From PVC group bacterium (GTDB lineage Bacteria; Auribacterota; Erginobacteria; Erginobacterales; Erginobacteraceae): a DNA stretch of 40,301 nt. Location of the stretch: contig JAZDIV010000019.1 of assembly GCA_043804695.1 (NCBI GenBank), forward strand, positions 1-40,301. Direction: 5' to 3'. Within the stretch, counting starts at the first letter, position 1. Each line of letters starts with the position of its first letter. Made by a program: the position numbers and the translations under genes. Positions 8,339 to 31,976 of the stretch are shown here, one piece after another. Below the pieces are notes generated by a model that was not told the origin of the DNA, searched no databases, and saw nothing but the letters and a program-made list of their open reading frames with translations.

Positions 8339-8412
8339 GGGGGCGTAGCTCAATTGGTTAGAGTACCGGACTGTCGATCCGGGTGTTGCGGGTTCGAGTC
8401 CCGTCGTCCCCG
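8339..8412 (+). tRNA. tRNA-Asp(GTC); anchor of the cassette array
   Basis: GGGGGCG/CGTCCCC acceptor stem, anticodon arm CCGGA-CTGTCGA-TCCGG, T-loop GTTCGAGTC; CCA not encoded. Confidence 0.95.
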
Positions 8413-8417
8413 TTTTT

Positions 8418-8451
8418 AAAAAGCCTGGAAGCGAGAGCTTCCAGGCTTTTT
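8418..8451 (+). terminator. Intrinsic terminator after tRNA-Asp (left end of cassette 1)
   Basis: AAAAAGCCTGGAAGC-gaga-GCTTCCAGGCTTTTT. Confidence 0.85.
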
Positions 8452-8587
8452 AAAATTTGGAGTTCCACCAATTCTCTTCTAAGGCCTCCTCGTAACTTTT
8501 TTATGTAGAGCTTCCAACAAGCATGTGGTATAAATCATCTTTAGATTGAAACTTTGCATTTTACTGATCAAGCAATGGAGGCTGATA

Positions 8588-8836
8588 ATGAAAGATGAAC
8601 AATTACTTGCACGAATTGTGTTAAATCCTAAGATTATGGTTGGGAAACCGGTTATTCGGGGAACTCGTCTAACCGTGGACTTCATTCTGAATTTACTCGC
8701 TCATGGGACGACTGAAGCTGAAATTTTAAATGAGTATGAAGGTCTTACTTATGAAGACATTCAGGCTTGCTTCCTTTTCGCGACTAAATCCTTAAAAGAT
8801 ACTGCTTTTATGCCTTTGGGTGTGGAGACCGTGTAA
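8588..8836 (+). CDS. DUF433 family antitoxin
   Basis: RIVLNPKIMVGKPVIRGTRLTVDFIL...YEGLTYEDIQACFLFA signature; GGAGG RBS before ATG 8588. Confidence 0.9.
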   Translation: MKDEQLLARIVLNPKIMVGKPVIRGTRLTVDFILNLLAHGTTEAEILNEYEGLTYEDIQACFLFATKSLKDTAFMPLGVETV

Positions 8837-9187
8837 ATGCGTTTTCTGGTTGATGAATGTACCGGACCGGTAGTGGCGAAGTGGCTGAGAGAGCAAGGTC
8901 ATGAGGTATTTTCAGTTTTTGATGAGGCACAAGGACTTGATGACGATGCTGTAATTCAGAAGGCTTTGGAAGGAAACTGGATTTTGATCACCAACGACAA
9001 AGACTTTGGGGCGAAGGTATATCGAGATCGGATTCTTCATGCGGGGGTTATATTACTTCGCATGGAAGATGAACGGAATCAAATCAAGATAAATGCCCTT
9101 GCTCAATTGCTTGATCAATATAGAGATCGTTTAGGGAATAATTTTGTTGTCGTCACAGAAACCCAGGTTAGATTTGCCGGCATCTAA
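8837..9187 (+). CDS. DUF5615 PIN-like toxin
   Basis: MRFLVDEC...LDDDAVI...ILITNDKDFG...HAGVILLR; adjacent to DUF433 gene. Confidence 0.9.
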   Translation: MRFLVDECTGPVVAKWLREQGHEVFSVFDEAQGLDDDAVIQKALEGNWILITNDKDFGAKVYRDRILHAGVILLRMEDERNQIKINALAQLLDQYRDRLGNNFVVVTETQVRFAGI

Positions 9188-9214
9188 ATCAGGGGCTCGT
9201 TAAGACAGACATAT

Positions 9215-9301
9215 CTTCCGGTGCCCAGCCCTCACTGTTCGGAAGCAAATGTTGAGGAAATCCCAGATTAACCACGCTCTGAGACACCCGTCGTCCCCGT
9301 T
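9215..9301 (+). repeat. Cassette-end repeat A, copy 1 (87 bp)
   Basis: CTTCCGGTG..CACTGTTCGGAAG, then TCCCAGATTAACCACGCTCTGAGA, then CCCGTCGTCCCCGTT (identical to 8400-8414). Confidence 0.95.
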
Positions 9302-29841: not shown

Positions 29842-29903
29842 TTGGAATTAGGGAATAGGGATTGGGGATTAGGGAATGGGGATTGGGGATTAGGGAATGG
29901 GGA
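29842..29903. repeat. Heptamer tandem repeat (GGGA[AT]T[AGT]-type)
   Basis: TTGGAATTAGGGAATAGGGATTGGGGATTAGGGAATGGGGATTGGGGATTAGGGAATGGGGA. Confidence 0.8.
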
Positions 29904-29939
29904 CTGTGGACTGCTTACCGATTACTGCTTACTGCTTTT

Positions 29940-30032
29940 CCCCCGGTGCCCGCCCCTCACCGTCCGGAAGCAAATCTTAAAGGTATCTTAAATTAACCAC
30001 GCTCCCCGGTGACAACCGGGGTCATGCCCGTT
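29940..30032 (+). repeat. Cassette-end repeat A, copy 8 (93-bp variant)
   Basis: CCGGTGCCCGCCCCTCACCGTCCGGAAG...TTAACCACGCT-CCCCGGTGACAACCGGGG-TCATGCCCGTT. Confidence 0.9.
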
Positions 30033-30324
30033 AGCAGGCCCGGGACGTGGTCTGGCTTACCTTCACTTCGTTCGAGGACAAGCTCATCCTCCGGCTCCAA
30101 AGAATACCGCATCTCTACCCAACCCGACTTCGTCACCTACGATAAGAAAAATTATATACCGCTACCAGAATGAATATAGATTTGTTAATCCTTTCTTTAA
30201 AGCTTGGTTGATTTACAAAAATTATTAAACAACGAGCTCAACGGCCACAAGATCAGCCCGGGCGACTCCCTCTAATGTCACGGGGTTGATGTGGACACAG
30301 GACGGAGACCGGCACGGAGGAAAG

Positions 30325-31803
30325 ATGAGAACATACTTTGCGATTGTCCTGGCAGCAGCAGTCTTCGGCATTGCCGGATGCGGAACTCCAGGCAAGGCGC
30401 CATTAAACGCAGAAACAGAGAGCCCGAAGATTGAAGACGATCAGTTCTTCTCAAACTACCTTTACGCAAAGATGCCCGGGCGGTCCCTGCACACCTTTGG
30501 CGAGAACGACCTGAAGTGCCAGTTTCTAAACATCAGCCCGCAGCTTCATTCGGTATTTACGCCCGAATTCACGGCGGCGGTATTCTCTAAACTCCAGAAG
30601 ATTTACTCCCTCGAAATCGAAACCGCAAGAGAAGGCATCCACTCGGATGAAGAGATGGCCCAGTATCTGCTGGACGGCGGCGTGTTAAAAGAGCTGGGAA
30701 TAAGTAAATCCGCGGCACTGAAGGCTCTCAAAGAGACAGACCCAGGCGCGAACCTGATACACCCCCTGGCCAAATTCACAAGATACCATGCGATTGATCC
30801 CCCCGGCGCGCCGGTGAGGCTGCCGGGCGAGTTTGAGCCCGCGGGTGCGGTCTATGTCTCCTGGCCGCGGTACGACACCTGGGTATGGGACAGGACGGCG
30901 TCGCTCGTAAAAGAGACAAAAGATGTCTCGCCGGCCTGGATATTCGTTCCCAACGAGTACTGGCAGAAGGCAGTTGAGTTATATCTGAGTAAAAAGGGAA
31001 TCGGTTTCTCCAACGTGAAGTTTCTCCACATCCCCACAGATGATGCGTGGGCGAGGAACTGGGGGCAGCTCACGGTTTTCTCCGGCGAGAAGGGAGAACC
31101 GGCATTTATCCGCGCGGCCCTCATCGGATACGCGGGCGGACAGCCGTACGCCAAACAGAGTTCTGAGGCCGTGGCGGCGTTCGGCCAGTACATGGACGTG
31201 CCTGTCTATCAGCTCCCGCTGATTACCGAACTGGGGGGCAATGTCATAACCGACGGGAACGGTACTATCATAACCTCGCAGCATTTTCCCGACCAGAATC
31301 CGGATGTCGGGCGGGAGAATTTCAAGAAGATACTCCGTGACTATCTAGGCTGTGAACAGCTGATCGTTATTCCGGACCTCAAAGGTGAAGTTTGCGGACA
31401 CGCCGACATACTGGTGAAATTCGCCGACCCCCGCACGGTGTTCGTCGCCTCGGTTCCCCAAGGCACCCCGTGGTATGAGGATCTGGAGAAGATTGCCGAA
31501 ATTATCGCCGGTGCAAAATCCCTTTCGGGGGTTAATTATAAAGTGGTAACACTTCCGATGCCTACCAACCAGGATTTCAGCAAGGATTCCAAGGACTGGT
31601 CATATATCAACAGCCTGACGGTGAACAAGAAGATAATCGTTCCCCTCTACGGAGCTCCGGAGGACGAACAGGCGTTAAGGATTTACCGGGAAACTCTGCC
31701 CGGTTACGAAGTGGTCGGCATCGATTGGTCGCCGTATTTCTTCGGGGCCATTCACTGCCAGACCCAGGATGTTCCCCCGGCGGTAACGAACCGGATAAAA
31801 TAG
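30325..31803 (+). CDS. Agmatine deiminase/PPAD-family lipoprotein
   Basis: RLPGEFEP, W.R, GGN..TDG.G, GHAD, SYIN and GAIHCQTQ (catalytic Cys); lipobox IAGC after GGAGG RBS. Confidence 0.85.
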   Translation: MRTYFAIVLAAAVFGIAGCGTPGKAPLNAETESPKIEDDQFFSNYLYAKMPGRSLHTFGENDLKCQFLNISPQLHSVFTPEFTAAVFSKLQKIYSLEIETAREGIHSDEEMAQYLLDGGVLKELGISKSAALKALKETDPGANLIHPLAKFTRYHAIDPPGAPVRLPGEFEPAGAVYVSWPRYDTWVWDRTASLVKETKDVSPAWIFVPNEYWQKAVELYLSKKGIGFSNVKFLHIPTDDAWARNWGQLTVFSGEKGEPAFIRAALIGYAGGQPYAKQSSEAVAAFGQYMDVPVYQLPLITELGGNVITDGNGTIITSQHFPDQNPDVGRENFKKILRDYLGCEQLIVIPDLKGEVCGHADILVKFADPRTVFVASVPQGTPWYEDLEKIAEIIAGAKSLSGVNYKVVTLPMPTNQDFSKDSKDWSYINSLTVNKKIIVPLYGAPEDEQALRIYRETLPGYEVVGIDWSPYFFGAIHCQTQDVPPAVTNRIK

Positions 31804-31889
31804 TTTTTCGTAATTTCTTGTTCAATTTCCTTTTCTCCAACTAATTCCGGGAAAATTAACAACAATAGATTTTATGCGGATCGATGGAT

Positions 31890-31976
31890 CTCCCGGTGTC
31901 CATTCTTTACCGTACGGAAAGCGATTTTGATGAAATCCCAGATAAGCAACGCCCTGGGATATCCGTCATTCCCGTA
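31890..31976 (+). repeat. Cassette-end repeat A, copy 9 (87 bp, diverged; distal array boundary)
   Basis: CTCCCGGTGTCC...TACCGTACGGAAAGCGATTTTGATGAAATCCCAGATAAGCAACGCCCTGGGATATCCGTCATTCCCGTA, followed by an imperfect hairpin to ~32011. Confidence 0.88.

Follow-up and report, generated by a model that had tools for sequence, protein, structure and literature searches.

What kind of mobile system could leave nine direct copies of one repeat behind a single tRNA gene, each copy closing a small unit of cargo genes? The question is raised by a contig from a PVC group bacterium of the uncultured phylum Candidatus Auribacterota (GenBank assembly GCA_043804695.1, contig JAZDIV010000019.1), of which a stretch of 40,301 nucleotides was analysed; this whole stretch is called the window below. 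The assembly, labelled G000 here, is an 88% complete metagenome-assembled genome (MAG) of 2.97 Mb in 155 contigs, and it was compared within a set of 79 genomes of the phylum, G000 counted in. A preliminary description, made from the window's letters alone, saw an integron-like array of gene cassettes after tRNA-Asp and attributed it to a tyrosine integrase acting in trans on a non-coding hairpin arm joined to a tRNA core. Comparison with relatives leads to a different answer. The array is very probably a composite island at the 3' end of tRNA-Asp, assembled by integrative elements whose gene for a large serine recombinase (LSR) has the attachment (att) site of the element inside it. What carries this answer can be read off the loci directly: the identity of the repeat, the split-gene geometry at tRNA ends, the way core and tRNA vary together, junctions that break sharply at the core, and cassettes that are reshuffled between arrays.

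The layout of the array stands as first described. Repeat searches return a 7-copy family (D8) and a 2-copy family (D15) at the same nine positions, and the nine copies align as a single unit of ~90-108 nt with a mean column identity of 75%. A covariance model built from them, which was run on the whole G000 assembly and on the 79 genomes, scores them at 84-119 bits, with all nine on the + strand; direct repeats after tRNA-Asp do split 23.5 kb into units. The copies, referred to as scars here, lie on the + strand at 9197-9304 (scar 1), 11386-11493 (scar 2), 16360-16467 (scar 3), 20555-20662 (scar 4), 21393-21500 (scar 5), 22523-22630 (scar 6), 26661-26774 (scar 7), 29922-30035 (scar 8) and 31872-31979 (scar 9, the last of the array). 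Scars 1, 2, 3, 5, 6 and 9 are each supported by the covariance model, by the antisense tail described below and by translated alignment (tblastn). Scars 7 and 8 both have a 6-nt in-frame insertion, and scar 8, which has an internal stop in addition, is the most decayed copy. Elsewhere in G000 the model returns a match at E=0.59 and two copies on contig C117 that are weak or partial, and a DNA search of the assembly agrees on the rarity of the repeat. The extra copies are thus few, and the repeat is therefore not a dispersed element of the repetitive extragenic palindrome (REP) kind; the genome-wide scatter that would have spoken against a tRNA-linked array is not seen, the repeat being nearly restricted to this locus in G000. 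The claim that each repeat follows closely on a stop codon holds for copies 1, 2, 3 and 5 (27, 16, 25 and 17 nt), whereas the other five begin 86-206 nt after the last stop.

The anchor is an intact tRNA-Asp(GTC) at 8339-8412 on the + strand, with a conserved tRNA-Val as left neighbour (8150-8221, +), and the same Val-Asp pair also stands ahead of arrays in relatives. Both flanks of the array consist of housekeeping genes, the right-hand one opening with tRNA-Pro at 32279-32354 on the - strand; all three tRNAs are called by ARAGORN and by Rfam at the gathering threshold. As first noted, the repeat that bounds each unit closes with the tRNA 3' core: copies 1 and 4 match the tRNA-Asp 3' end exactly over 15-16 nt and into the following T's, their cores being identical to the tRNA-Asp end, while the remaining copies differ from the tRNA-Asp core at two positions. 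By this comparison the attachment core, the left half of an attB-like site, is the last ~13 nt of tRNA-Asp plus the next T. The statement that most copies are followed by a terminator also survives, in that folding places a strong hairpin after seven of the nine and after the tRNA itself (-19 to -30 kcal/mol, z <= -3.3). The one 3' of tRNA-Asp (8413-8455, +; -29.7 kcal/mol) is ~80% like the hairpin after copy 6. A clear T-run is present on six of these hairpins, and copies 4 and 8 have no hairpin; the one that follows copy 1 is the sole hairpin picked out by a strict consensus terminator scan.

The origin of the arm, the part of the repeat ahead of the tRNA core, is revealed by two metagenome loci, L110 and L111, found in a motif scan of metagenome contigs. 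Each encodes a 629-residue LSR with Resolvase, Recombinase and Zn_ribbon_recom domains (L110:1127-3013; L111:7330-9219), the recognised domains covering residues 57-420, and in L111 a primase gene and a helix-turn-helix (HTH) gene accompany it. A screen of the metagenome loci for long open reading frames (ORFs) showed that the LSR frame in both terminates inside a repeat copy, on the opposite strand. In a translated search of the 79 genomes, LSR residues ~586-627 match the repeat antisense in G000, G018, G046 and G022 at 59-76% identity. Antisense translation of the nine window copies gives one frame with a common tail, NGHDGCPRAWLIWD...FRTVRDGHRKIC and then a stop (scar 1 reads NGDDGCLRAWLIWD...), and this frame is open in eight of them, the internal stop of copy 8 being the only break. 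Across 58 ungapped copies from genomes and metagenomes (57 unique), the tail frame contains 36 stops where the other two frames have 143 and 96, and its codon-position entropies of 0.72/0.62/0.96 make the third position the most variable. The repeats are thus the last 33-38 codons of an LSR gene in antisense plus a tRNA core, left behind as scars. The arm that had been taken for a non-coding recognition hairpin is the antisense of those codons. A recombinase gene next to a repeat copy elsewhere, which the preliminary description had suggested looking for, is present in L110 and L111, but the enzyme is of the serine type and not the tyrosine type.

The break between tail and gene body is sharp. 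A local tblastn of the LSR against the junctions (L107 and L118 being excluded as duplicates) matched 54, most of which start at LSR residue 593-597, and the eight window copies among the matches all break at 593-595. Eleven of the 54 junctions retain 10-190 extra residues of the gene body, among them a 192-residue remnant within the array of G051. Only residues after ~593 of 629 are removed from the LSR, beyond all of its recognised domains.

Where does the rest of the gene go? Relatives supply the complementary half. In G022 (contig C12) a homologue with 70% identity runs head-on into a tRNA-Asp gene, with a 16-nt overlap at the 3' end of the latter, and the C-terminus of the homologue is made of antisense-tRNA residues; the same head-on overlap is found at tRNA-Glu for a homologue with 69% identity in G025 (contig C234), and more distant homologues are convergent to tRNA-Gln or tRNA-Asn. 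The tail is the C-terminus of one of the ten closest database proteins; the other nine finish with antisense tRNA residues, from tRNA-Asp in seven and from tRNA-Glu in two. At E <= 1e-20 the family counts 337 database proteins; database relatives carry the same Resolvase, Recombinase and Zn_ribbon_recom domains, and antisense T-arm residues also form the C-terminus of members named from other phyla. The split-gene, tRNA-targeting design appears in relatives from several other phyla. G000 has a family member of its own (C49:363-2396; loci L122/L133), 46% identical, which ends against a tRNA 3' exon; a group I intron (Rfam RF00028, 71.5 bits) splits that tRNA, which ARAGORN misses. Since the gene in relatives runs either into a tRNA or into the repeat, its 3' end must contain the attachment site.

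The att site itself shows some further structure. The junction beside an intact LSR is dyad-symmetric, with 14-nt arms and an 18-nt centre that holds the core. The far-side half-site, in the LSR coding region, consists of a GC hairpin and then a T-run directly 3' of the tRNA, as at 11200-11290 of L132 (G022:C12) and 1570-1640 of L121 (G025:C234), and by its form this hairpin appears to double as the terminator of the tRNA transcript. Some cassettes that carry the toxin-antitoxin (TA) pair HigBA retain a 25-35-nt remnant of the far-side half-site and others have a plain terminator; in the window an inverted remnant stands at 20672-20689, right after scar 4. The arm also recurs in inverted form 3' of the core, but at only about six junctions, and it was rejected as a fixed part of the site.

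If the core derives from the target, it should change with the target, and it does. The covariance model matches 19 of the 79 genomes, G000 counted: 8/8 in its own family and 1/2, 1/1, 1/1 and 7/8 in four other families; the relatives named by a genome scan are Candidatus Erginobacter and Euphemobacter. The array of G018 has seven scars and that of G051 four, to the window's nine. At nine of the 19 genomic places sampled, in nine other genomes, the repeats lie downstream of, and co-oriented with, tRNA-Asp, as the anchoring proposed for the window predicts; three places are downstream of tRNA-Glu, and the other seven have no tRNA in the available stretch, three of these being contigs of less than 6 kb. 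The metagenome motif scan adds ~30 contigs, 11 of which reach a co-oriented tRNA-Val/tRNA-Asp upstream. The last 13-17 nt of the scar follow the anchor: Asp loci end in the Asp acceptor strand, the three Glu loci in the Glu acceptor strand, and in G051 and G046, where the tRNA-Asp gene encodes CCA, the repeats end ...GCCAG. The repeat end thus follows genomic DNA and not mature tRNA, and the duplication therefore arose at the DNA level. The arm motif has no matches in viral contigs, and a scan of species-level genomes returned only Auribacterota MAGs and one chance 22-nt match in a coding region of a contig labelled Caenispirillum. Between two scars of L110 (~3665-3700, minus strand) lies a bare fragment of the tRNA-Asp 3' end (T-arm half, acceptor strand and CCA) that carries no tail, and arrays therefore also contain plain target-type repeats.

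The units between the scars have not kept their places. The upstream flank of the window is 81% identical to that of G018, of the same genus, up to the tRNAs, and beyond them the two arrays are unrelated. HigBA with its scar, cassette 2 of the window, is shared, at 75-87% identity, with 10 or more other arrays and stands directly after the tRNA in G019. Homology around the MazEF genes starts inside the tRNA-Asp end in L105 and inside the core of scar 2 in the window, and the order in L105, MazEF then HigBA, is the reverse of that in the window. A cassette homologous to the window's AbiE unit is found in the tRNA-Glu arrays of G022 and G020. Cassette content and order thus differ between relatives with breakpoints at the core, as the preliminary description had anticipated, the HigBA, MazEF and AbiE units all being found in changed order.

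Together, these results suggest how such an array would be built. In this account the LSR gene points towards the tRNA with the att site within its 3' end, and recombination in the core of the tRNA acceptor strand cuts the gene's final 33-38 codons off from its body. The body then reads into antisense tRNA at the tRNA-proximal end, and at the distal end the orphan tail remains with a duplicated tRNA core as a ~108-nt scar. Each scar closes a cargo unit, either a TA pair or a secreted glycosidase/FG-GAP protein. An element could subsequently excise through recombination between its proximal site and any scar downstream of it and re-integrate at the tRNA or at a scar, gaining or leaving behind cassettes that have no recombinase. 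Exchange of this sort would account for the cleanness of all nine window junctions and for the absence of a cognate LSR from the locus.

Several points weigh against this account of the array. No cognate LSR was found in G000, only the C49 member at a different, intron-containing tRNA, and activity at this locus cannot be claimed. A two-ended element was not recovered; the G022:C12 element runs off the start of its contig, with no scar in the available 11 kb. L110 and L111, which have the LSR with its tail, might represent episomes and not integrations beside a scar. The crossover position within the core is one that we infer from sequence, and the use of scars as recombination partners in this LSR family is argued by analogy. 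Model serine integrases recombine attP with attB only, unless a directionality factor is present (PMC3783163, in the part consulted); under canonical attP x attB pairing, tandem growth therefore needs either decay in the time between entries or scar usage, as reported for cassette chromosomes with multiple attR sites (PMC6222049). Nor do the related genomes and the metagenome contigs count as independent samples. As for length, the 13-17 nt shared by scar and tRNA exceed the repeats of serine-recombinase integrative and mobilizable elements, which are called 'very short' in the sections seen of PMC5704250.

Could decay alone have produced the array? The units would then be what is left of separate complete LSR elements after ordinary deletions, their cassettes immobile and their scars unused. 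The cis-mobilizable element (CIME) type of decay is a standard route to tandem islands (PMC5704250, same sections), the cognate LSR is missing from G000, and the 192-residue remnant in G051, with the shorter remnants at 11 of the 54 junctions, indicates that decay also happens. The window fits this less well, however. Its eight tblastn-matched junctions break at 593-595 with no body remnant, random deletions should not stop precisely at the core nine times, and the same cassettes occur elsewhere in differing orders with breakpoints at the core. Moreover, once a first element has integrated, the tRNA-proximal site would no longer serve a canonical serine integrase as attB, and any later entry calls for some further site-specific step. 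The clean breaks and reshuffled order favour site-specific pick-up and drop-off, and decay as the sole process is rather unlikely, if the nearest competitor.

The converse possibility is full gene capture, integron-like in outcome and different in chemistry, in which shuttle elements pair their site with any scar and so move recombinase-less cassettes about. This can be put forward only tentatively, and it is more doubtful than the composite island itself. Under gene capture, a scar would act as a spare last exon: landing at a tRNA would leave a truncated recombinase with an antisense-tRNA end, and landing at a scar or excising as a circle would restore the conserved 36-residue tail. The state of integration would then switch the form of the enzyme and perhaps also its directionality.

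The original proposal, small non-autonomous cassettes of non-coding arm and tRNA core inserted by a tyrosine integrase in trans as a new gene-capture platform, had sound reasons behind it. Tyrosine integrases typically give rise to direct repeats of a tRNA 3' end (PMC4383910 and PMC5704250, in the portions available), a distal direct repeat with the tRNA kept intact is what is observed here, and the window has no recombinase: insertion sequence (IS) transposases aside, no complete integrase or recombinase gene lies beside the array, as had been stated. The enzyme found in association with the repeat is nevertheless a large serine recombinase. PF00589 matches in G000, G018, G021, G046 and G051 all lie away from the arrays, with none among the array ORFs scanned, so that no tyrosine recombinase adjoins any array in the five genomes searched; G051, which is 94% complete, has only two genome-wide. 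G000 itself holds by PF00589 and TIGR02249 a XerD, a XerC-like protein and an IntI-like gene at C32:273-1178 (L010), 273 nt from the contig start, which matches the IntI model only at 2-110 and ~248-315 and thus has a large internal deletion. A tyrosine recombinase acting in trans was set aside with these as the only candidates in G000 and none beside arrays elsewhere; a Xer-type (dif-like) site was also set aside, the repeat having no resemblance to one by eye. The arm, finally, is explained as LSR coding sequence, and this coding identity largely refutes the tyrosine-cassette version, which is now very improbable. Readings as a guide RNA, an IS200/IS605 end, a casposon or a retro-element were dropped as well, because the coding explanation also suffices; the core follows genomic DNA (T or encoded CCA) and the units have no terminal inverted repeats.

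Less probable again is that the repeats are a structured RNA element of the 3' untranslated region, two hairpins and a terminator common to unrelated genes. Their position just 3' of stop codons, their two internal inverted repeats and the strong hairpin after seven of nine copies would suit such an element, but the consensus fold has compensatory change in none of its 14 predicted pairs, other sequence stands in place of one arm of hairpin 2 in copies 7 and 8, and the opposite strand is a conserved open frame with third-position bias that is continuous with a recombinase gene. Rfam at the gathering threshold returned only the three tRNAs, with no family matching the repeat. The least credible of all is a divergent integron, with the repeats as attC sites of an array that has lost its integrase (a CALIN, cluster of attC sites lacking integron-integrases). 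An attC site is an imperfect inverted repeat (R''-L''...L'-R'), and its bottom strand forms a single hairpin with bulges. The nine copies have no common bulged hairpin or closing stem, and their bottom-strand DNA folds are not consistently better than shuffles, with z from +0.64 to -4.27 and only two of nine having no more than 2 of 200 shuffles as good. Small, co-oriented, TA-rich cassettes and a GTT after the core in several copies do recall integrons, and integron integrases are common in the phylum, with 20 of the 79 genomes over the cut-off. The two do not go together, however: ten repeat-positive genomes have no IntI, 12 genomes with an IntI over the cut-off have no repeat, and the core co-varies with the neighbouring tRNA, unlike attC sites. 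Bottom-strand folds, consensus fold and IntI profile thus give no support to an attC integron, in agreement with the preliminary description on this point.

The earlier claim that the platform has no precedent does not stand, since the array resembles several known systems in part. Among these are the staphylococcal and enterococcal cassette chromosomes (SCC/ECC), in which CcrAB act at the 3' end of rlmH. Shared features are a large serine recombinase with variable cargo, insertion at the 3' end of a housekeeping gene that is conserved and preserved, and several attR-type repeats that bound recombinase-less segments 3' of one housekeeping gene; the att sites there have dyad symmetry, to which that of the junction beside an intact LSR may correspond. 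Multiple attR sites marking such segments are reported for 16 of 32 ECCs and for complex SCC elements in the part consulted of PMC6222049. In contrast, the target here is tRNA-Asp or tRNA-Glu rather than rlmH, a single LSR takes the place of the CcrA/CcrB pair, the att site is inside the recombinase gene with the scar a ~108-nt fragment of it, and units are 0.8-5 kb as opposed to 21-78 kb. CIMEs, as in ICESt1/ICESt3 and the tRNA-Lys islands of Streptococcus agalactiae, are remnants that keep their att sites and form tandem arrays with adjacent new integrations, followed by composite excision and cis-mobilisation (PMC5704250, in the sections cited above). The likeness is in tandem accretion at the ends of tRNA or housekeeping genes; there the enzymes are tyrosine integrases and the repeats plain target-gene ends, whereas here a serine enzyme leaves a repeat with its own C-terminal coding end, and nine successive integron-sized units are unusual.

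Closest in the design of the gene are the serine integrases of rumA-targeting streptococcal integrative and conjugative elements, which have one direct repeat in the target and the other in the integrase gene, so that integration swaps the 3' parts of both genes and alters the integrase C-terminus (PMC4701971, in the portion seen). Here too integration separates part of the integrase gene, the tail lying on scars and the body running into antisense tRNA. The rumA target is protein-coding, with direct repeats of 2-21 bp, and that portion of the paper describes no tRNA target or cassette array; here, unlike there, a strongly conserved tail is exchanged for antisense-tRNA residues. The 'suicidal' tyrosine integrases of the SSV type have attP in the integrase frame, target a tRNA and split their gene on integration; according to the extracts used of PMC7253208, fragments of different origin can reassemble, targets can switch, and the type is restricted to archaea. 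In that case the gene of a tyrosine enzyme is broken into a pair of inactive pseudogenes, whereas the serine enzyme here loses only its last 33-38 codons and all recognised domains stay on the body. Integrons and CALINs, for their part, share the co-oriented small cassettes, the many TA pairs, the one 3' repeat each and the frequent absence of a recombinase from the array; the differences are the missing attC architecture and IntI link, and a repeat that is a fragment of a recombinase gene with an anchor-dependent tRNA end.

A limited literature search, in main texts only, found no published tRNA-targeting serine-recombinase cassette arrays and no Auribacterota mobile elements, and the main text of PMC9324843 has no occurrence of integron, integrase, recombinase or toxin-antitoxin. 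What seems new, on these sequence comparisons, is a tRNA target for a serine recombinase family that is spread over several phyla, along with a conserved orphan tail in the role of the repeat and units whose size and number recall an integron. A concrete, testable mechanism takes the place of an apparent 'new kind of integron', and a large unstudied family of serine recombinases emerges at tRNA 3' ends, a niche usually ascribed to tyrosine integrases. Their genes carry their own attachment site in the last codons, and natural, conserved landing sites in tRNA genes are of interest for genome engineering with serine integrases. The arrays also display how TA and secreted-enzyme genes are shuffled within a phylum that is uncultured. 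Annotators may take from this that the orphaned end of a gene can pass for a conserved 'intergenic repeat' of ~100 nt.

The cargo was assigned by scanning the 32 ORFs of the window with Pfam, and every Pfam-supported gene of the interval is on the + strand, which bears out the co-orientation first described. In one relative the rule is broken: L105 carries AbiEi/AbiEii at 12959-14660 on the strand opposite to the scars, unlike the window, and co-orientation of the cargo is therefore not absolute. Most units of the window encode TA pairs. Cassette 1 (8546-9187) pairs a DUF433 antitoxin-like protein with a PIN-like (DUF5615/PIN_10) toxin, and homologous pieces are present in metagenome loci L084 and L086; cassette 2 (10729-11387) has a HigB-like (Gp49) toxin with an HTH antitoxin, and cassette 5 (20729-21393) a second HigB-like/HTH pair, 87% like the first (repeat D10). 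Cassette 6 (21433-22334) combines a PIN_3 toxin with a HicB/CopG-like antitoxin, and AbiEi/AbiEii occupy cassette 4 (18681-20397).

Cassette 3 (11541-16352) is composite, with MazE/MazF at 11541-12196 followed by a 1328-residue secreted BNR/PPC/FG-GAP protein at 12366-16352. MazEF has a scar of its own in L105 and in G018 (C17), and in the window the BNR/FG-GAP gene follows directly, with no scar at 12197-12365; from this comparison a scar between them seems to have been lost, fusing two cassettes. The remaining units carry larger enzymes: a GH38-type glycosidase with FG-GAP repeats in cassette 7 (22784-26590), a 100-residue protein and a GH9 cellulase with FG-GAP-like repeats in cassette 8 (26822-29841), and a PAD_porph protein of the peptidyl-arginine/agmatine deiminase family in cassette 9 (30286-31803); all of these are also on the + strand.

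Two insertion sequences interrupt the array. An ISL3-family element (9357-10716, +; transposase 9421-10692) sits in the left end of cassette 2, bounded by inverted ends at 9357-9388/10685-10716, and an element with a DDE_Tnp_1_4 transposase (16734-18423, +; transposase 16843-18222) lies inside cassette 4, with inverted ends at 16734-16752/18405-18423. Their transposase genes are, as claimed, the only complete recombination genes in the window, but the repeats themselves turn out to be fragments of another. Two arrays from a different family of the phylum include IS200-like Y1 transposase genes in their cargo (L050 8691-9269; L100 12280-13290).

Some of the cargo has repeats of its own. A long run of 18-nt period at 13764-15016 codes for a Pro/Thr/Ser-rich linker in the 1328-residue BNR/FG-GAP protein, and FG-GAP units of 120 nt are common to three cargo genes (15629-16322, 25846-26560 and 29118-29811). 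G-rich units of the GGGATT/GGGAAT type with TTACTG repeats stand ahead of copies 7 and 8 (26640-26680 and 29837-29940) and of a partial copy on C117 (~4420-4480); in all three the module is placed just 3' of the stop codon of an FG-GAP gene. C117 also resembles the stretch beyond the last scar, in that its positions 1-186 are 97% identical to 32029-32214 of the window in the same orientation. Beyond position 186 it carries a PAD paralogue, FG-GAP genes and two diverged scars, and by its content it may be an alternative path or a strain variant of the array's far end.

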